IMG/VR virus record: IMGVR_UViG_3300025727_000005
From: an uncultured virus (IMG/VR IMGVR_UViG_3300025727_000005)
Lineage: Duplodnaviria; Heunggongvirae; Uroviricota; Caudoviricetes
Direction: 5' to 3' (one strand)
DNA length: 54,106 bases
Shown: positions 1,539 to 33,939 of the stretch, in pieces
Numbering within the stretch: the stretch's first letter is position 1
Layout of the letters: each line of letters starts with the position of its first letter
The notes under the pieces: model-generated
Seen by the model: the letters and a program-made list of their open reading frames with translations, nothing else
Databases searched by the model: none
Told to the model about the DNA's origin: nothing
Program-made: the position numbers and the translations under genes

Positions 1539-2654
1539 CTATCTAAGAGAGACTGCTTCCATTTTATAAGTCAAATAAGTGATTGCAGGGTATCGACTCG
1601 CTGTCTTACCCTCTACCATCTCATCATATTCGTCAGTATTAACCACCCAGCGATACATCGCTTTCTCTAAGAGAGCTAAAAACCCTGTTATGATGAGTGG
1701 TGCAAAACTACCTATGTTTTGTTTTAGATAATCCTTAACCTGATCTGCATTTAAACTGATCGGTTGGTATTGAGATATTGGAGTCTCTATCGTTGTATGC
1801 TCAATTTGAAGGAAGTTATTATCTGAAGCAGGGATAGCGTCTAATGTAAGATCTCCTTTTGACATTGCTACTTCCATTTTTTTAGCAAGGTCTTGGGCTT
1901 CTTCTATCGTGGGGAGCTGTGTGGTCGGAGGAACTTCTTGAACAATACGAACCCTTGTATTTTGACTCAAAGCGGTATACTCAGTCATATCTGCTAAAGT
2001 GGTTCTTAACCCAGAGGCTTGGACAATCAAACGAGCTAACATCACAATGATCGTGGTCACTACTGTGCCTTTTAAAGCCATTATCCCCACTACCCCTATG
2101 AGAGATGTGAAAAAACGATAAAGTACCTTAGAATACCTTTTAAGAGCGTTCATGAATATCTTAAAGCTATCCCCTTCACTAATCTTCTTAGGGTTAAGGA
2201 TATGCTTAAAGTCTGAATACCATGAAAGGTATGCACTTTTCATCCTCGTTTGGTTTTCGCCCACATACTTTTTAACAAGGTCTTTTAAAGGAATCTTTTT
2301 ATCCTCTGCCTTACCCCCTGTGAAGATAGATTTCAAAGGGTCTGAAGGATTAAAGGAAACGATCTTAGGTAAGCCAGCTCTTGTGGTTGTCACACCTGCC
2401 ATAGCTCTAAAAATCCTTGAACCCAACAACGCCCCTAAAGAGTCGTTAATCTTGGATTTATTTCCCTCAACTTCAAGATTGACCGTATTGTATATGTCAG
2501 CAAATCCATTGATGATCTTCTTAACAATGTTCTTAGGGATATTAACAAGACCTTTAAATGTACTTGAAATATCATCTATGAACCCTGCTTGACGCTCTAA
2601 GTTTGCGACTCTAATTTCAAGCTCTCTTATGGTTTCACTGGCAGATCTTCTCAT
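1539..2654 (-). CDS. Leader-cassette protein with long hydrophobic segments (putative membrane-inserting virion protein)
   Basis: MRRSASETIRELEIRVANLERQA leader; hydrophobic stretches FFTSLIGVVGIMALKGTVVTTIIVMLARLIV and IGSFAPLIITGFLALL. Confidence 0.8.
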   Translation of the reverse strand: MRRSASETIRELEIRVANLERQAGFIDDISSTFKGLVNIPKNIVKKIINGFADIYNTVNLEVEGNKSKINDSLGALLGSRIFRAMAGVTTTRAGLPKIVSFNPSDPLKSIFTGGKAEDKKIPLKDLVKKYVGENQTRMKSAYLSWYSDFKHILNPKKISEGDSFKIFMNALKRYSKVLYRFFTSLIGVVGIMALKGTVVTTIIVMLARLIVQASGLRTTLADMTEYTALSQNTRVRIVQEVPPTTQLPTIEEAQDLAKKMEVAMSKGDLTLDAIPASDNNFLQIEHTTIETPISQYQPISLNADQVKDYLKQNIGSFAPLIITGFLALLEKAMYRWVVNTDEYDEMVEGKTASRYPAITYLTYKMEAVSLR

Positions 2655-5506: not shown

Positions 5507-6142
5507 ATGGACGCAACAACAATCCTTTATATAATCCTTAGTCTGCTTCGTGCAGACAACGCAACGAACTTGGACACCCCAGTGGTTCACAATCACTTGG
5601 TCGAGGTGAGCCAATCGATTGAAGCTCACGCTTCACGCACAGTACCTGCTGTGAGACTTATCTCGTTAGCATATAACGAGAGTCGCTTCGGCTATCGCCA
5701 TGTTCAAAAGGGTAAGTACCCTAAGTCAAGTTGGGGTGCTTGCGGTATATACCAACAAGTAGTGAAATACAGCAAGATTAAAACTACCTGTAAGAAACTA
5801 GGGACTGATGTTGATCATGCGACACAGGCGGCTGTGGCTTACCTCTCCTACATGATTGATCGTTGGTCAATCCGAGGTAGTAGTCGTATGGACGAGCGTA
5901 TGTGTCATTATTTCAGTGGTAATGACTGCGATGACAATAAAGATGGGAAGTTGAACCTTAAAGATGACGCTATGCAATACGCATCACGACATCGTAAGAT
6001 ACGCTTAAAGGCTCATAAACTACGCTCTAAGGCTAGTAGGTCTTTGAAACCACGCACTACTACTCGCAGAGCTAGAAAAGCTCGTAAGATCACATTAGAG
6101 AGCCTTTTCGCAGGTGTTCGCAAAAAGTCCCGTGAAGACTAG
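5507..6142 (+). CDS. Lytic transglycosylase (SLT-like) domain protein with N-terminal hydrophobic segment and basic tail
   Basis: LAYNESRF (catalytic Glu-Ser), GACGIYQ and HYFSG match SLT motifs I-III. Confidence 0.6.
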   Translation: MDATTILYIILSLLRADNATNLDTPVVHNHLVEVSQSIEAHASRTVPAVRLISLAYNESRFGYRHVQKGKYPKSSWGACGIYQQVVKYSKIKTTCKKLGTDVDHATQAAVAYLSYMIDRWSIRGSSRMDERMCHYFSGNDCDDNKDGKLNLKDDAMQYASRHRKIRLKAHKLRSKASRSLKPRTTTRRARKARKITLESLFAGVRKKSRED

Positions 6143-9245: not shown

Positions 9246-10040
9246 ATGAATCTACTGATATTTTTAGGACTCTCTTTTCAGTGTATGTTGAACCATATGT
9301 CTTATGCGTCCTCTATCCACATAAGACCTGGATGGGATGTGGTTCAATCAAGACCAGCTTCAGAGAGGCAACTTAAGAGGTTTCTAAGAGAACTGACAAA
9401 GAACGAAGAAGAATATATTGACCCTCGCATCCTAGCCTTATCTTGGGTTGAGTCTCGTATACGACCAAGAGTACGAAGAGGAGATCGTGGTAAAGCCTGT
9501 GGGATGTTTCAAATCCATGCTCGCTACTCTTATCCCATGTTCAGAAGACGAAGGGGATTCAACGGTTGGGTCGAGGAAGAACAAAAAGAGGTGATTGGTA
9601 AGGAATGTCGCAAACTCGAATCTATAAGGTACTCTGTAAAGACCGTAGAGAAACTTTTAGGTATGATGGATAAGAGAGACTTACACCCTTGTCATCATAA
9701 CAGTGGCTTCTATGGTCGGTGTAATACATGGTATAAACAACGAGTAGATTACTGGACTGCGTACTTTAAATTCGCCAACTTTATATGCAATGAAAGGATA
9801 GTGAAGATTATGGCTATGATGAGAACAGGAAATCCCATACCCACAGCACCCGCTACAATGATACAAGGATACCTAGACGCTATGGGAGGTAAAGAACCCC
9901 ATAGCGAAGATACGACTTATAAGTCGGGGTATGATCTAGCCAAACTCGTACAAGAGGGGAAGGCTCAAGCACCCTCTTGGGCGACTGAAGACTCAAACAG
10001 CACCTCGACAACAAGCGAGGGAACTGAGCGTGAGGGATGA
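9246..10040 (+). CDS. SLT-like transglycosylase domain protein with N-terminal hydrophobic segment and extra C-terminal domain
   Basis: LSWVESRI, GKACGMFQI, HHNSG; AAGGA RBS. Confidence 0.6.
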   Translation: MNLLIFLGLSFQCMLNHMSYASSIHIRPGWDVVQSRPASERQLKRFLRELTKNEEEYIDPRILALSWVESRIRPRVRRGDRGKACGMFQIHARYSYPMFRRRRGFNGWVEEEQKEVIGKECRKLESIRYSVKTVEKLLGMMDKRDLHPCHHNSGFYGRCNTWYKQRVDYWTAYFKFANFICNERIVKIMAMMRTGNPIPTAPATMIQGYLDAMGGKEPHSEDTTYKSGYDLAKLVQEGKAQAPSWATEDSNSTSTTSEGTEREG

Positions 10041-10701
10041 TTGGATAAGGCAAGGATTAATAGGGACACACCCTATACACCTACCTTATCTAGTATCAAG
10101 AGGGGTGAATGAAAGTTGTCTAGTAGATTTCTACTCATGGCAACCCCACACCAATGTTCAATGTCCAAAGTTTAAAGCTAACTTTGGACATTCAGGTGAG
10201 CGTATTAAAGACTCACTCATAATCCCTATTACTTCCCCACGAGGGGAGATCTTAGGGATGGAAACACGCAGGATCAACGAGGACGGGTCTAAAAGAGTAC
10301 ATCAGTACCGAACCCTCAATGCTCAATGGAATCCTTATGCTTTAGGTGCAGAGGAAGGTTTTAAGGCATTGTGGGAACTAGGAGATTTATGGGTTGTTGA
10401 GGGGATCTTTGATAAGATCTCTCTCGATAAGGTCATACCTAGTTGTGATGCCTGTATCTCAACCTTGAGGGCTGGTATGGATGCTATCACAATGGACATG
10501 ATAGAGCGTTTCTACACACCTGCCTCAACCATATACATCTGTTATGATAATGATGAGACAGGTCAGAAGAAATCATATTGGCTTCAGCGTGAGATGAAGA
10601 AGCGAGGTATGAGGGCTGTTATCTGGAAGTATCGAGGGAAAGACCCTAACGATGTGTGGACACAAGGAGGAGATCAAGCTCTAAGGAGAATGTTCCTGTA
10701 A
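10030..10701 (+). CDS. DnaG-type primase catalytic (Toprim) domain lacking Zn-binding domain
   Basis: LIIPI..RGEILG..R, VVEGIFD, CYDNDETG, KDPND. Confidence 0.85.
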   Translation: MRDDWIRQGLIGTHPIHLPYLVSRGVNESCLVDFYSWQPHTNVQCPKFKANFGHSGERIKDSLIIPITSPRGEILGMETRRINEDGSKRVHQYRTLNAQWNPYALGAEEGFKALWELGDLWVVEGIFDKISLDKVIPSCDACISTLRAGMDAITMDMIERFYTPASTIYICYDNDETGQKKSYWLQREMKKRGMRAVIWKYRGKDPNDVWTQGGDQALRRMFL

Positions 10702-11975
10702 TCTTCTTCAATATCTCTTACTTCTAAATCCATGATTGCGTAAGAAAGCCCATCAACACCTCTCTTACTTTCATTTAGATTTATAGTAAAGTGTTTAGTT
10801 CCTGTTGTGATGTCCTCATCTTCTTCATTCTCAAAATATTCAATAACACATTGAATGTCCAAACGAAAATCTTCTTCATCGAAGAAAATCTTATCCCTTT
10901 CGAGATAATAATCGGAAAGCTCATATACCTCTCTACCTAGTTCAGTGCTTATCCACCTATCCACAACCTTAATCAAATGTTTTAATGCTTTCCCACTTCT
11001 ATCTATTAAGTTAAGATTAATCGCCTTACGAGCGTTACCGTAGGATTGTTTTTCGAGTCTTGCGATCCTCATCTCAAGAGGATTAATGATTTCTGATGCT
11101 GATCTTCGGTTAGAGGTACTTTTCAGATGTTTTACCACTTCTTTACGATCATGCTTTCCATCTACACTCCCTACTTCAACCCCGACAGGTTTTGCATCGG
11201 GAGAGCTAAAGTAAATGTAAGCCAAAAAGTGTTCATCAACCATACCCTTCTCTTCACAAAAGTCATCATAGCATATTTCTTTCTTTTGACCCTTATCAAT
11301 CAAAAGCTCATAAAGACCCTGCTCGGATTTGATTTGCACAGCTTTGAGAATCTTTGGTCTGCTTTTGAAACCTTTGATAAATTTGGCTCTTTCAGCGGCT
11401 TTAATGACTTCTGTCTCCGTTAAACCAAAAGAGTCTTTTACCCATCTTTGAGAGAAGAAGTCTTTAACATCTTTAAAGTTAAATGCTTGTTTTTCAAGTC
11501 TAGCGATACGACCCTGTTTACGAAGCCTATCTCGCTCTTGGTTGACCATTTTTTGATGCTCCTCTACTTCTTTACGAGCACTCTCTTGACCTACACGATA
11601 AATAACTTGATCAACGACTCGTTTAATGAAGTTTCTTTCGCTCATCTTTGAGTCATTTGCACCACTCAGTTCAAAGTCTACTTGTCTAAAGTCTCTGTTT
11701 CCACCTGTGATCTTGTACTCAGCAGTATCTTTCCCTTCTCTTTTTAGAGAGACTTGGTACACCTCACCTTCAAATTTGAACTTCCCTGATAACCGATTGT
11801 CCTTATCCATTTTCACATCAGAATTGACTGCTCTGTTGTCTTTTAGTCCTTTTAAAAACCACCCATGTACCGTATCTAGGGGGTTTTTTTCAAAAAGTCC
11901 AAAGATTGCTTGTTTTTCAAGACGAGCAATCCTCATCTGAAGGTTATTAATAATTTCACTGGCAGATCTTCTCAT
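10674..11975 (-). CDS. Leader-cassette polyprotein-like protein (three leader-delimited modules)
   Basis: N-terminal MRRSASEIINNLQMRIARLEKQA plus internal GRIARLEKQA and RRSASEIINPLEMRIARLEKQS; start moved to ATG 11975 behind GGAG. Confidence 0.85.
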   Translation of the reverse strand: MRRSASEIINNLQMRIARLEKQAIFGLFEKNPLDTVHGWFLKGLKDNRAVNSDVKMDKDNRLSGKFKFEGEVYQVSLKREGKDTAEYKITGGNRDFRQVDFELSGANDSKMSERNFIKRVVDQVIYRVGQESARKEVEEHQKMVNQERDRLRKQGRIARLEKQAFNFKDVKDFFSQRWVKDSFGLTETEVIKAAERAKFIKGFKSRPKILKAVQIKSEQGLYELLIDKGQKKEICYDDFCEEKGMVDEHFLAYIYFSSPDAKPVGVEVGSVDGKHDRKEVVKHLKSTSNRRSASEIINPLEMRIARLEKQSYGNARKAINLNLIDRSGKALKHLIKVVDRWISTELGREVYELSDYYLERDKIFFDEEDFRLDIQCVIEYFENEEDEDITTGTKHFTINLNESKRGVDGLSYAIMDLEVRDIEEDYRNILLRA

Positions 11976-12038
11976 AATGGTTCTCCATTTGATTAAGGTT
12001 AGACTGATCACTTATGAGAACCTATAAATAAACTATTA
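11907..12038 (-). repeat. Cassette head copy D
   Basis: Sense: TAATAGTTTATTTATAGGTTCTCATAAGTGATCAGTCTAACCTTAATCAAATGGAGAACCATT-ATGAGAAGATCTGCCAGTGAA... Confidence 0.9.
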
Positions 12039-16022: not shown

Positions 16023-16478
16023 TTAGTATTCCTTACCTTTGGGTTCTTTTGTGATGTCTCTACGCCTATCTTTTAAACCCGCTTCACTAGCTTGAAGAAC
16101 TAAGAATTTTTGAATGTCTCTCTTAGGGATATTTTTGTCTACACCAGTAGCTGTGACAACCGCAAACAGATCTGCCATCGAATTTTTATGCTCTCCTTGC
16201 TGATACAAATTCATTGCCACTGATACTTTAATTTTATCACCATTATGTTCAATAATGGCTGTGTTCTTTGAACCCATGCCTAGCCTTTTTTGTATTTCTG
16301 CGTACCCTATCCCATACATAGGGTTACCATGAAACCAAAGTGATGCGGTATCAAACTTGGGCCTCTTTTTTTGTTCTCTTTCAGGTTCTTTAAATAAGTC
16401 CAAGATAGCACCTAAAAAACCTTCTTTTTGCATATATCTGTACGCAACTCTACTAGCCATCTTATTACGAGTTCTCAT
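16023..16478 (-). CDS. Type-2 leader protein (KMASRVAYRYMQKEG-FLGAILDLF)
   Basis: RVAxRY leader; class-L box upstream; AAGGA RBS. Confidence 0.75.
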   Translation of the reverse strand: MRTRNKMASRVAYRYMQKEGFLGAILDLFKEPEREQKKRPKFDTASLWFHGNPMYGIGYAEIQKRLGMGSKNTAIIEHNGDKIKVSVAMNLYQQGEHKNSMADLFAVVTATGVDKNIPKRDIQKFLVLQASEAGLKDRRRDITKEPKGKEY

Positions 16479-17139: not shown

Positions 17140-17484
17140 ATGAGTGAATGGGTCGTATATGTCATCCAGAGTCAGCAGATCAGACGCTCTGCTAAGACAG
17201 GTAAAGAACTACCTGGTTTCTTCTATGTAGGTTGCACCACAGATGTTAACCGTAGGCTGAGACAGCATCAGGGTTTCATCAAAGGAGGCGGGAAATACAC
17301 TGCAAAGCACCGACCTTGGAAGCTCATGTGTACTTATGGCACATACGCTAATAGATCAGAAGCCATGAAAGCTGAGATGGCTCTAAAGAAAAAGCGTGGT
17401 AAGGCTAGGCTCTATTGGACAGAGCAAGAGTCTAAATGGTGTCGAGGTCGTAAAGAAATAGGACTTAAAAACGACTGTATTTAG
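17140..17484 (+). CDS. GIY-YIG endonuclease, SLX1-like
   Basis: VYVIQS...FYVGCTTDVNRRLRQH.G..GG..YT...RPW...EAMKAE. Confidence 0.9.
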   Translation: MSEWVVYVIQSQQIRRSAKTGKELPGFFYVGCTTDVNRRLRQHQGFIKGGGKYTAKHRPWKLMCTYGTYANRSEAMKAEMALKKKRGKARLYWTEQESKWCRGRKEIGLKNDCI

Positions 17485-17803
17485 CTATGTCTGAATCCAT
17501 CTGTTCATTCATCATCCCATGAGGCGGGTTTCCAATATCTAAAGCGTCACCCGTAGATGTTGTCATAAGAATATGATGATACTTTGAGTAGTTTATTTCT
17601 ACACCATTAGAAAGAGAGATAGAAACCATCTCTCGACCTGTAGGGTCCTTCCCTCTTTGCACATCAACAACATTTCTGTTTGATAGTTTTTGCTCGGCAA
17701 GATCGTGAACATAACGCAGATCTACGGCCTCACTAGCAAACCTTTCAAGTTTCGCAATCCTAGTCTCAAGGTTTCTAAGGATTTCTGATGCAGATCTTCT
17801 CAT
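17465..17803 (-). CDS. Leader-cassette protein (MRRSASEILRNLETRIAKLERFA...)
   Basis: Leader plus ~90-aa unique cargo. Confidence 0.85.
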   Translation of the reverse strand: MRRSASEILRNLETRIAKLERFASEAVDLRYVHDLAEQKLSNRNVVDVQRGKDPTGREMVSISLSNGVEINYSKYHHILMTTSTGDALDIGNPPHGMMNEQMDSDIAKYSRF

Positions 17804-28609: not shown

Positions 28610-29113
28610 ATGAGTGATGGAAACATATCAGGCACTACACCATTACCTGAACACTGTCACTTTGTTGGCAGTGATAAGATAATCTGCTCGGACAACGATG
28701 GCGTTGATCGAGAATGTGAATTTTTCGAGGGTGAATTAGGATGCAAGGTGACAGCACAACTTGTGGATGTAAACCCAACAGGTGCGGAGATGAAAGATGT
28801 CTTTATAGGTCATGCTTATCTTGTAGTGGTTGTCGCTATTTTGAGTTTAGCCTTAACTCAAATCATTAAACCTTTCATTTGGAAAACCTGCACCGAAAAG
28901 TCGGATGCTGTGATTAGACTATTTGCGATACTCACGGGTGCGGGTATTGCCTACCATTTATCAAACCCACTTAAGATGATTGATGTCTATATGGGAGCAA
29001 GTGCGGGAGCTATCAATGCTTTCGTGATAAAAATGTTTAAAGCTAAAGTCAAGAAATCACTAGGTGTTGAATCAACACCAGACCCACAAGATAAGGAAAA
29101 AGAAGATGAATAA
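28610..29113 (+). CDS. Holin-like three-TM membrane protein with Cys-containing N-terminal extension
   Basis: Three hydrophobic segments, basic C-terminus; paralog of 29490..29873. Confidence 0.5.
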   Translation: MSDGNISGTTPLPEHCHFVGSDKIICSDNDGVDRECEFFEGELGCKVTAQLVDVNPTGAEMKDVFIGHAYLVVVVAILSLALTQIIKPFIWKTCTEKSDAVIRLFAILTGAGIAYHLSNPLKMIDVYMGASAGAINAFVIKMFKAKVKKSLGVESTPDPQDKEKEDE

Positions 29114-29462
29114 ATCAGTACAACGAGTTGCTTCAAAATATATGGAAGCAAGATTATTTGGAATACTTAGTACTCCTGTTAGCAATCAGGAAATAAGAAG
29201 AGCAGTTAAAAGATTACAATGGGCTTTCCCAAAAGGTGAATACAAAGTCATGTCCATTATGGGGCAAGACAGGAAGAAAGTGATTAGGACTACTACACCA
29301 GATGGTTTCTTGTCTGAGATTACTGGTCTTGAAATGGACAAAAAAGGGAATCTATCTTATCGGGTCTTAACTGTGTCTAACCCTCATGGCAGAGACATTA
29401 AAGTTGATAGTTTAGACGAAGCGACAGATACTGTATATAGATTATTAAAGAATCACTTGTAA
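29106..29462 (+). CDS. Type-2 leader protein (MNKSVQRVASKYMEAR-LFGIL)
   Basis: Start moved to ATG 29106; RVASKY leader. Confidence 0.7.
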   Translation: MNKSVQRVASKYMEARLFGILSTPVSNQEIRRAVKRLQWAFPKGEYKVMSIMGQDRKKVIRTTTPDGFLSEITGLEMDKKGNLSYRVLTVSNPHGRDIKVDSLDEATDTVYRLLKNHL

Positions 29463-29873: not shown

Positions 29874-29989
29874 TAGTTTATTTATCATTCACTCTTTTGA
29901 AAATGAAATGGAGAAATAAAATGAGAAGATCCGCATCAGAAATCATCCGTAACCTTGAGTCTAGGATTGCTCGTCTTGAACGACAATCG
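29871..29989 (+). repeat. Cassette head copy G
   Basis: TAATAGTTTATTTATC...AAATGGAGAAATAAA-ATGAGAAGATCCGCATCAGAAATCATCCGTAACCTTGAG; coding part near-identical to copy F. Confidence 0.85.
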
Positions 29990-30370
29990 GGTCGAGGATC
30001 AAATCGTCTTGAAAGACAAGCAAGACCAAATGAGAAAATAGAAAATGAAACATCAAAAACAATTCTCACTAAGAAGCAATGGGCAGGGATTGCAAAGACA
30101 CACGCCCCAAAACCTTTTGAGAATCCTCTTGGAGATCAAGAGGTGTATTATGACTATCGCAGAGGAGGTATAATCGTTGATGATCGTGATGAGCATGGTG
30201 ATGATGGAGAAATATTTCTAATCAAAGAGATTAAGGGGGGCGGGGCTGAGGGTGCATTTCAAGTCTATCAAGAGGTTTATCCAGATGCTAGACTGGGCCA
30301 AAATGGCTGGAATTTTGATGATATGAAGTATTTAGGGAAGACACTAGATCAACGAGCGAGGAGGGGATAA
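29921..30370 (+). CDS. Leader-cassette protein (MRRSASEIIRNLESRIARLERQSGRGSNRLERQA...)
   Basis: Start moved to ATG 29921 behind GGAG; duplicated RLERQ. Confidence 0.85.
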   Translation: MRRSASEIIRNLESRIARLERQSGRGSNRLERQARPNEKIENETSKTILTKKQWAGIAKTHAPKPFENPLGDQEVYYDYRRGGIIVDDRDEHGDDGEIFLIKEIKGGGAEGAFQVYQEVYPDARLGQNGWNFDDMKYLGKTLDQRARRG

Positions 30371-30501: not shown

Positions 30502-30870
30502 ATGAGATACCTATACCACTACAAAGCTGAAGTCCTCTCCGTCTATGATGGAGACACCGTTACCCTTATGATTGATCAAGGCATGAAACACTTTGCTAGG
30601 GTCAAGGTAAGAATGATTGGGATTGACACGCCCGAAATACGCACTAAAGACCTCGAAGAAAAGAAGCGAGGTTATGAAGCTAAGGACTACCTAAAGTCCC
30701 GAATCGAAGGTAAAACCATTATCGTACAAACCCTTAAAAAGGGTAAGTTCGGTAGGTGGCTTGGCGTTATGTGGGATTACACCGAAGATGCAGATGATCT
30801 AGGTGAATCACTTAACGATGAAATGATCCGCATGGGTCATGCTAAAGCCTATGACGGTGGTAAGAGATGA
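30502..30870 (+). CDS. Thermonuclease (SNase-like)
   Basis: VYDGDT, VRMIGIDTPE, KFGRWL, LNDEMIRMGHA. Confidence 0.92.
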   Translation: MRYLYHYKAEVLSVYDGDTVTLMIDQGMKHFARVKVRMIGIDTPEIRTKDLEEKKRGYEAKDYLKSRIEGKTIIVQTLKKGKFGRWLGVMWDYTEDADDLGESLNDEMIRMGHAKAYDGGKR

Positions 30871-31862
30871 GTATCACTATAGAGAAAGGTAGTAAAAGCT
30901 ATCCTCCATCTAATATACAAGTTCTTCTATGTAAGGATAGTGTAGTCTTAGGTGAAGTTAATGGGTATAGTGTGAACATGGAATACTCAGAGGTCGATGG
31001 CTCTGAATGCTATGAAGAAATATACGACCTTATTGAAAGATACCCTCAAGTCCTAGATGAAAACGGTAAACCTAGAATATCTGAAATTTACCAATCCGAT
31101 ATAGTTAAGTCTTTTAGAGGACAAGGCTTCGGTGTTGATATGTATATAGAGTTCATGCTTCGGTGTTGGGCTGAAAATAGTAAGGGCAAACCATTTATCC
31201 TAATCCCTAACGGTTGCAACTTAGATATGGAGGGGAACAACTCAGAGGACTCTATAAGAGTTTGGGAATCTCTAAGTCGTAAGTTTCCGAGTTCGGGAAA
31301 AAGCTACTCAACTTGCATTGCAGTGTTAAGGAAACCATCCTCAAGTAAAATGGCTCAAAGAGTTGCGAGTAGACATATCGCTCGTCTTGATATTAAGTTC
31401 GTAGAAACGGATGACTTCACTAATACAAATTCAACTCATTCGATAGAGATTGTAAATAATAAAGTGAAATTATATAGGGATGTTGTAGGTTTTATAGAGG
31501 GTAAGTTTGGAACCCATACTTTAGAAGAACTATATGAATATGCCTGTTCTGAAGATATTTTAGCCCTTTATGAACTATGGGCGATAGATGCTGAATGGCA
31601 CGATGAGATCCCTGTATTTGAAGTCTTAGAGAGCAGTGTCGATGAGGAGTATCGCTCAAAAAAGTTAGGTCTTCAAATGTATAAAGAACTCGCCAACTTA
31701 GCTAGGGAAGAGTCTAGGACACCAATGTTCTTTATCCCTAACTACTGCAATACGAGGTCTACAACCCCTTCAGCACTAAGGGTTTGGAAATCCTTAACAA
31801 AATCAAATGCTCCGACCAGCTCTGGTGATGTTGTTTTGATGGTAGATCGAAAGTTGAGATAA
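30867..31862 (+). CDS. Tandem two-domain GNAT-like protein with internal type-2 leader
   Basis: SFRGQGFGVDMY and EYRSKKLGLQMY motif-A copies separated by KMAQRVASRHIAR. Confidence 0.65.
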   Translation: MSITIEKGSKSYPPSNIQVLLCKDSVVLGEVNGYSVNMEYSEVDGSECYEEIYDLIERYPQVLDENGKPRISEIYQSDIVKSFRGQGFGVDMYIEFMLRCWAENSKGKPFILIPNGCNLDMEGNNSEDSIRVWESLSRKFPSSGKSYSTCIAVLRKPSSSKMAQRVASRHIARLDIKFVETDDFTNTNSTHSIEIVNNKVKLYRDVVGFIEGKFGTHTLEELYEYACSEDILALYELWAIDAEWHDEIPVFEVLESSVDEEYRSKKLGLQMYKELANLAREESRTPMFFIPNYCNTRSTTPSALRVWKSLTKSNAPTSSGDVVLMVDRKLR

Positions 31863-33003: not shown

Positions 33004-33939
33004 TCAATGACCAAAGTCTGCTTGGTTCTCGATAAATACTTCTCTAATTTGAGTGATTTGAGAGGTCAAGACTTTGTAAGACACCGAACGAGCCGAAGCC
33101 CACTTCTTCTTACTCTCATACTCTGCATATCTAAGCTCAAGCCAAAGCGAGTAGTACATATCTACCTTCGCTTCACCGAAACGATCAAGTAAAAGAGATC
33201 TCATGTACGCATTAGTGGACTTTTCTTCAAGAGAATGATTTTCGTCCTCATGCACAAAGTAGTCTGGCTCTCCGACTGACACACCAGTATCTGCGTCAGT
33301 CTTGGAAACCACTTGAGCGATCTGCCAACCTTGCGACTCAAGATTCTGTATATGATGGACAGGAACATAATCTGTGTTCGACTCTTTAGAAGCGTATGCT
33401 TTGACTTTCGTAACCTCTGATTGAGTCCTCGCACCACGACTCCGTTGTAGAGCATCTGCACCCTCTTTGTACTTTTCACGCACTACATACTGCAAGAACC
33501 ACTCATAGACCACAGAGGGCTTGATTCTCTTGCCTTTATCAATCTCAGTTTTGAGCTGATTTTTCTTGATAAAGTGTTCAGATAGGAAGCTATGGAAGTA
33601 GCTTACGATCTGATCTTCGGGTAGAGTGAAACGCTTGTTGTAAGGGGTTCTTCTCTGAACCATCCCCAACACTCGTTCGTAGTTCTCACACTTAGCATTA
33701 TAAAGCCAATTTTCAGTCTCATTTCGCACCCTAACAGGTTTTTTTGGCTGTGAGTCTGATAAGATCATGTCAAAGTGATCATCTGCTGAAGTGTCGTAGA
33801 TCATATCGAAGTGATCATCTGCTGATGTATCGTAGATCATATCGAAGTGATCATCTGCTGATGTATCGTAGATCATATCGAAGTGGGCATCTGCACCACT
33901 CCTTATAGGGTAAGCTAAACCCTTAGTTATTCTATTCAT
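33004..33939 (-). CDS. Divergent sigma-factor-like/HTH protein with N-terminal 12-aa tandem repeat
   Basis: C-terminal region-4-like helix pair (SKKKWASARSVSYKVLTSQITQIREVF); helical N-domain. Confidence 0.45.
   Translation of the reverse strand: MNRITKGLAYPIRSGADAHFDMIYDTSADDHFDMIYDTSADDHFDMIYDTSADDHFDMILSDSQPKKPVRVRNETENWLYNAKCENYERVLGMVQRRTPYNKRFTLPEDQIVSYFHSFLSEHFIKKNQLKTEIDKGKRIKPSVVYEWFLQYVVREKYKEGADALQRSRGARTQSEVTKVKAYASKESNTDYVPVHHIQNLESQGWQIAQVVSKTDADTGVSVGEPDYFVHEDENHSLEEKSTNAYMRSLLLDRFGEAKVDMYYSLWLELRYAEYESKKKWASARSVSYKVLTSQITQIREVFIENQADFGH
33763..33894. repeat. 36-bp in-frame tandem repeat (~3.7 units; ADDHFDMIYDTS)
   Basis: Units start at 33763, 33799, 33835, 33871 (GATCATATCGAAGTGATCATCTGCTGATGTATCGTA); no spacers. 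Confidence 0.95.

Follow-up and report, generated by a model that had tools for sequence, protein, structure and literature searches.

Modules of a 433-aa protein (P0001), encoded on the minus strand of the window (i.e. the whole 54,106-nt stretch of DNA that was analysed), are exchanged, gained and lost through in-frame recombination within leader copies, and several alleles of this protein segregate within one population. The leader belongs to a DNA cassette of promoter motif, RBS and 23 leader codons that dozens of small, variable genes have in common. On the strength of the sequence patterns described below, we consider it probable, though by some distance short of certain, that the leader is a T4-like capsid-targeting propeptide processed at a basic-x-Ala/Ser motif, which would make the fused gene the source of a cuttable cargo polyprotein.

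The leader was located at the N-terminus of the ORF and twice internally, as claimed by the first-pass annotation (whose coordinates were off by at most one base), although the second copy comprises merely the 3' half of the leader. The three blocks thus delimited, which had been described as unrelated, indeed show no mutual relationship (132, 125 and 122 aa without leader; best pairwise BLASTP E 0.36), and the number of additional RIARLEKQ occurrences expected by chance from composition is 3e-7. The locus is arranged as follows:

10674..11975, minus strand: three-module ORF, 433 aa (P0001), with the leader at its start and two internal copies
11907..11975, minus strand: leader copy 1, MRRSASEIINNLQMRIARLEKQA (aa 1-23), an amphipathic heptad helix with R-h-x-x-h-E that ends in K-Q-A; proposed capsid-targeting propeptide
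11511..11906, minus strand: module A (aa 24-155, 132 aa), basic
11484..11510, minus strand: half leader RIARLEKQA (aa 156-164), without RBS or ATG; recombination joint and proposed cut site
11109..11483, minus strand: module B (aa 165-289, 125 aa)
11043..11108, minus strand: full internal leader, RRSASEIINPLEMRIARLEKQS (aa 290-311), without Met or RBS and with a Pro at leader position 11
10674..11042, minus strand: module C (aa 312-433, 122 aa), acidic, and stop codon; its final 28 nt overlap the opposite-strand primase gene
11976..12022, minus strand: conserved 5' untranslated cassette with the RBS GGAGA at 11982-11986; similar DNA lies before most N-terminal leaders
12023..12038, minus strand: promoter-like motif TAATAGTTTATTTATA, found upstream of most leader genes; probably a late promoter
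10030..10701, plus strand: Toprim primase gene (Pfam Toprim), the convergent flank, which marks a variable insertion site

Considering that the identical protein is present on 49 contigs, and that a contig from an independent run (X10 record 2; positions 10626-11531, 0 differences) bridges both internal copies, the ORF is not an assembly artefact; the A-B joint is also spanned by a variant fragment (P0013), and an assembly chimera was on these grounds ruled out. The A-B-C allele was detected in 20 marine runs (80-100% of sampled words; 13 named studies plus four unnamed rows), nine of which are possible source runs; no RNA data set was among those listed. Translation initiating internally, at copy 2 or copy 3, was likewise ruled out, since neither has an RBS or an ATG at the leader start.

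Each of the three blocks is viable alone as a gene. Module A stands alone behind its own leader in P0014 (80%) and P0188 and is fused to other modules in P0006, P0007, P0009, P0010 and P0189; module B stands alone in P0017 (72%, 28 contigs) and occurs as the first module of P0008, P0015 and P0016; module C stands alone in P0174 (module identical) and P0018 (69%), and has a distant family, C' (P0023, P0185 and P0186). The search for stand-alone homologues with leaders of their own, which the first-pass annotation had called for, was thereby successful for all three blocks. Its further expectation of independently folding domains was upheld by structure prediction for block C, while for A and B the indication is of low confidence and comes from within the full-length model. 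Predicted alone by AF2 (pLDDT 78, pTM 0.71), module C forms a helix over a three-stranded sheet; it had no Foldseek match at E 0.001, and its best fold likeness was a cystatin/NTF2-like topology (Z 6.5, rmsd 2.4, 81 aligned), which names no function. The full-length AF2 model is poor (pLDDT 48, pTM 0.31) and depicts three separate alpha/beta blocks joined by helices, so that fold searches started from it say little. Pfam returned 0 families for P0001; PHROG yielded no match for blocks A and B, a weak one for block C (E 0.022, a family of unknown function) and, for the full-length protein, matches to the leader helix only. In the ESM Atlas block B had no usable match and P0018 reached only scores of 0.78 and TM <0.5, while a further homologue search with block C recovered P0018 only and a viral-contig scan with block B the identical locus only.

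The module combinations comprise A-C' (P0006), A-X (P0007), B-Y (P0008), A-Z (P0009), C-V (P0011), A-B-C' (P0187) and C' alone (P0185, P0186), and near-identical alleles (A-B-C, A-B-C', A-C', A-X and C alone) switch exactly at leader copies. Allele L002 differs from the window at two of 465 nt in block A and then continues into another module, its breakpoint falling within the half leader, in the codons for R-I-A; allele P0187 equals the window through the RLEKQ of the third copy, and passes from there into module C'. The assembly graphs branch at 11502-11531, and the A-C' joint co-occurs with A-B-C in three of the four seawater runs examined, with contig depths (not to be read as cell shares) of 4.9, 16 and 14.5 for A-C' versus 4.5-11 for the B-containing allele. 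One joint (11507-11983, leader straight to B), found in a single run with just 21 bases on one side, was set aside. The complete relative (G001, 375,691 bases) has a different fusion, in which an internal leader without Met precedes a C'-family module. The earlier proposal that the cassettes were concatenated by recombination between leader copies is therefore well founded, as stand-alone forms of A, B and C exist and the allele breakpoints fall inside leaders.

Another argument of the first-pass annotation, that internal retention of the leader points to a cleavage or binding site, turned out to be weak by itself: a crossover inside the leader leaves its 3' part internal anyway and, the fusions being recent (the two differences in block A), retention alone proves little. 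This bears on a reading which we hold to be fairly unlikely, namely that the N-terminal leader is a real propeptide and the internal copies are passive recombination scars, the chain being loaded and trimmed at its N-terminus only, or else cut inefficiently, and the fusion near neutral. The youth of the fusions agrees with it, as does the kept 3' half, which recombination alone predicts; moreover, the Pro at position 11 of copy 3 occurs in none of 169 N-terminal leaders, and a cluster member (P0175) has an E-to-G change within the same third copy. The A-B-C allele is nevertheless widespread (49 contigs; 20 runs), and fusions that arose independently within the clade have retained [KR]x[AS] ahead of their downstream module, both of which speak for the internal copies being more than scars.

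The virus record that carries the three-module ORF (G000; 107,480 bases, 34% complete) encodes DNA polymerase A, primase, thymidine kinase and baseplate genes, and holds 15 leader copies: 11 N-terminal, one frameshifted remnant, one internal with RBS and ATG, and the two internal ones of the three-module ORF. Leader matches numbered 31 in G001 and 11 and 12 in two further relatives (G002 and G003, respectively). G000 and G001 have 81 of 94 non-leader ORFs in common (median identity 80%), while most G000 leader ORFs match G001 through the leader alone, their cargo being different; G001 possesses the primase, followed by a different gene, and has no such three-module gene at that place. Other leader-tagged genes of the window, with the neighbours of one of them, are:

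17465..17803, minus strand: leader-tagged gene, 112 aa
17900..18289, minus strand: leader-tagged gene, 129 aa
1539..2654, minus strand: leader-tagged gene, 371 aa
592-1506 and 1-541: neighbours of the gene at 1539..2654, the former with a degenerate leader, the latter with a full leader and running past the window end
29921..30370, plus strand: leader-tagged gene, 149 aa

Beyond the window, the short frameshifted leader-gene remnant (G000:C1:24203-24301) retains an intact upstream cassette. A leader profile built from seven window copies (threshold E 0.001) retrieved 991 protein clusters (50% identity); at least two leader matches were present in 14 of the best 150 of these clusters (a share inflated by score ranking), and one of the 150 leader-bearing clusters scanned had a Pfam match above the cut-off. 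Across 235 parsed leader proteins this one short peptide forms the N-terminus of small proteins that otherwise show no relationship, and these resolved into 256 modules and 178 families (145 singletons; median 121 aa). Twenty-one of the 235 were multi-module, most of them found since the search started from the three-module locus.

The leader is under protein-level selection, i.e. it acts as a peptide, which follows from its low pN relative to pS (0.21 vs 0.60 across 12 copies in G000 and 0.24 vs 0.65 across 27 copies in G001, both uncorrected; pN/pS 0.36) and from the existence of internal copies without RBS or start codon. Synonymous sites are near saturation and the residues are kept, also across Ser AGT/TCA and Arg AGA/CGT switches. 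These values disfavour the notion, in our view a very improbable one, that the leader is a DNA-level cassette for expression or recombination (a promoter plus translation start in the manner of PeSL) whose peptide has no function of its own. What speaks for it is that promoter, untranslated region and RBS are conserved along with the leader, that PeSL offers a precedent (PMC2839356, PMC4122927), and that some internal copies keep RBS and ATG; both internal copies of the three-module ORF, on the other hand, lack an RBS and a start codon. The in-frame internal leaders with RBS and ATG (G000:C1:24332-25393; G001 ORFs at 78106 and 274815) are possibly dual-start genes or first-stage fusions.

The motif in front of the 5' cassette is probably a late promoter, and the leader genes would then be expressed late, together with the morphogenesis genes. 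A matrix made from the motif copies of ten G000 leader genes recognised 72 sites in G001, giving an upstream site to 61 of 371 ORFs, and the motif precedes 25 of the 33 G001 leader ORFs as well as the first genes of the head, terminase, tube and sheath operons. In the same scan of 371 ORFs it was absent before the DNA polymerase, primase and thymidine kinase genes; as exceptions, two apparently metabolic genes also carry it.

The circumstantial evidence for processing stems from the triplet [KR]-x-[AS]. Among 63 full leader copies in four genomes, 41 end in it directly after the core (33 [KR]xA and 8 [KR]xS), and 14 of the other 22 have [KR]xA within eight residues (background 3.5% per 7-residue window); the eight leaders with no nearby [KR]xA include seven from the 22 copies of G002 and G003. 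Since the position of [KR]xA shifts between leaders, a linear protease motif fits better than a helix register. At fusion joints without a leader core [KR]xA was present in six of six cases (background 5.4%), which derive from two downstream module families only.

The head genes point in the same direction. By [KR]xA excess, the top three of the 372 ORFs of G001 were a scaffold-like protein, with 19 triplets where 7.1 were expected, a protein of the terminase operon, with 20 instead of 8.7, and the protease, with 11 instead of 4.3, although no single enrichment passes the correction for 372 ORFs (best 1.6e-4 x 372 = 0.06). By group (labels partly assigned by eye), the excess was 1.03x for replication, 1.02x for tail and 0.42x for capsid plus decoration, and other spacings were near 1. 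This enrichment was computed for Ala only, and the third leader copy ends in K-Q-S; the major capsid protein has no such propeptide. In the G001 head cluster lie the protease, the capsid protein, a decoration-like protein and an acidic protein which owes the label scaffold-like solely to its position. The protease (L073:14634-16082, minus strand) matches the PHROG head maturation protease (E 5e-14) and is 38% identical over 128 aa to gp19 of phage G, with the His/Ser motifs FVEH and SMGC kept, while no significant match was found among solved sequences; the gene is present in the complete G001 and was not found on the 34%-complete G000 fragment. In Tunturi_5, gp332, encoded between the protease and capsid genes, has 20 [KR]xA vs 7.7, and among the 671 ORFs of phage G the [KR]xA excess is highest in gp19.

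General [KR]xA tails at the C-termini of modules were considered as second propeptides and rejected for want of enrichment: 19 of 204 modules have the triplet among their final 15 aa, and control windows gave 19, 7 and 16. Other proteins of the window (16023-16478, 29106-29462 and 30867-31862) share another basic motif, RVA-x-[RK]-[YH], often followed by [KR]-x-A, which is frequent in G001 too.

The shape of the leader lends itself to yet another explanation. Its heptad positions are A5, I9, L12, I16, L19 and A23, with L12, R15, L19 and E20 near-invariant among 148 sequences (themselves selected by the leader profile), and within this repeat RIARLE fits the definition of R-h-x-x-h-E, described as a trimeric coiled-coil motif (Arg(g)-h(a)-x-x-h(d)-Glu(e); PMC3653964). 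The leader could hence be an uncleaved coiled-coil assembly tag, by which tagged proteins homo- or hetero-oligomerise, or bind to one partner shared by all, and the fusion works at full length like beads on a string; AF2 renders all three copies as helices (at low confidence), and the scaffold-like protein has weak leader-like stretches. We judge this explanation unlikely, as it leaves unexplained the out-of-register [KR]xA, the [KR]xA at leaderless joints and the enrichment in scaffold and protease, and as neither the half copy of nine residues nor the copy with the Pro makes a good coiled coil. Coiled-coil docking is compatible with our preferred explanation, as its targeting step.

We reason that under this preferred explanation, a cleavable capsid-targeting propeptide, the three-module gene would represent a natural fusion of three head-cargo cassettes in a jumbo myophage of the phage G/Bxz1 type. 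Leader genes would be expressed late, the leader helix would address the protein to the prohead core, and the head maturation protease would cut after [KR]-x-[AS], taking the leader off and splitting the chain at the internal copies. Because one N-terminal leader would load all three modules, the internal copies would need only a cut site. Three proteins of 14-16 kDa would remain in the head, and these would probably enter the host along with the DNA, to serve in host takeover or counter-defence. The release of three proteins by a protease, already suggested by the first-pass annotation, is plausible. More [KR]x[AS] triplets are present inside the modules (aa 61, 110, 180, 192 and 316), for which reason the mature N-terminus of C could also lie after aa 318.

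The closest functional parallel is found in T4, from which the combination of targeting propeptide and protease is, as a concept, already known: the capsid targeting sequence (CTS) is borne by IPI-III and Alt, and is described as being removed by the prohead protease gp21 (PMC9026906). Like the CTS, the leader is a common short N-terminal peptide on unrelated, small and variable proteins whose cargo varies between close relatives, and we propose prohead loading and removal by a head protease as further likenesses. Unlike the CTS (about 10 aa, ending in Glu), it has 23 aa, is helical and ends in [KR]-x-[AS]; the head genes belong with those of phage G and Bxz1, 15-31 genes are tagged per genome record, and natural multi-module chains occur. 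From the sequences, the leader system appears to work like the T4 CTS/IP system without being a member of it, given its other peptide, motif and head lineage. Shuffling of the T4 IP locus was reportedly treated by Repoila in 1994. For that locus such shuffling is proposed without a mechanism (PMC4122927), and PeSL are presented as mobile, promoter-containing regulatory cassettes before ORFans (PMC2839356, PMC4122927). Repeated promoter-containing cassettes before ORFans that act as sites of gene exchange, insertion and deletion are common to PeSL, the T4 IP locus and the leader genes. In our case, unlike in PeSL, the crossovers lie inside the coding leader (and so yield in-frame fusions) and the promoter appears to be late; an early sigma-70-type promoter, a stem-loop in non-coding DNA and mini-circles are features of PeSL.

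Head ejection proteins of SPN3US are described as processed by gp245 at A-X-E (PMC10052503). What is alike is that head proteins of a jumbo phage carry propeptides which the prohead protease removes at a motif of three residues, self-cleavage included (for the leader, this cutting is a proposal); motif and head lineage differ, and the SPN3US paper reports N-terminal propeptides besides self-cleavage, not chains of modules joined by leaders. Polyvalent proteins, which occur in phages and in conjugative elements, similarly carry several unrelated conflict-type domains on one polypeptide, for which packaging, processing and injection are predicted (PMC5512222). By contrast, no MPTase, MuF or other catalogued domain was found in the three-module protein (0 Pfam), and its joints are genome-wide leader copies.

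The capsid protein of G001 shares 46% identity with its counterpart in Tunturi_5, 38% with gp27 of phage G and 29% with those of cluster C mycobacteriophages, and Bacillus (Lysinibacillus) phage G (NC_023719) has a homologous capsid protein and protease. Taken together, the G001 capsid protein and protease find their matches in phage G, Tunturi_5 and cluster C mycobacteriophages. The RRSASE..RIARLE leader is absent from phage G and Tunturi_5. In phage G, 17 of 671 ORFs begin with a shorter basic leader, M..[KR]RL[IVK], and [KR]x[AS] falls in residues 4-14 of 12 of these 17 (vs 96 of 654 others). This shorter leader is a candidate for capsid targeting in a phage that has been cultured. The tagged genes comprise deoxyribosyltransferase-like, SLOG and GNAT genes and one with a weak PARP-like match; tagged ORFs (L095-L121) lie, for example, at positions 11937, 28218, 35181, 178671, 244460, 245994, 254652, 388147 and 446709. 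In passages of three phage G publications (PMC12484599, PMC8570332, PMC11924767) neither a leader nor a cleavage motif or site is reported, and our literature search, run with terms other than the literal motif and with few subscription papers in its scope, did not turn up this leader, or any processing at basic-x-Ala, for the lineage.

A broader possibility, to which we would give slightly less than even chances, is that the phage G/Bxz1 lineage has its own cargo code: a head protease cutting after basic-x-Ala/Ser, and leaders particular to each clade through which dozens of ORFan effectors reach the capsid, with the leader doubling as a recombination site that gives rise to combinatorial cleavable polyproteins in a wild population. 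If true, it would offer a rule for telling which of the hundreds of jumbo-phage ORFans are virion-delivered effectors, and would predict where the members of an uncharacterised family of head proteases, that of cultured phage G included, cut their substrates. The allele series itself catches module shuffling under way in a natural population.

Several minor observations were made in the same genomes. An actin-like gene lies at G000:C1:19142-20146, and its G001 copy (L081:4483-5481) matches Pfam Volactin (E 1.6e-75). A cluster of paralogues of about 400 aa, starting with MFF[DE]Y, occupies G000:C1:7457-16286, while the G001 terminase large subunit (L071:3255-7340, minus strand) contains an intein and LAGLIDADG domains. 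Within the window, the proteins encoded at 5507-6142 and 9246-10040 have hydrophobic N-termini and look lytic-transglycosylase-like by eye (with no Pfam match), and the one at 33004-33939 (minus strand) bears a tandem DTSADDHFDMIY-like repeat near its N-terminus.
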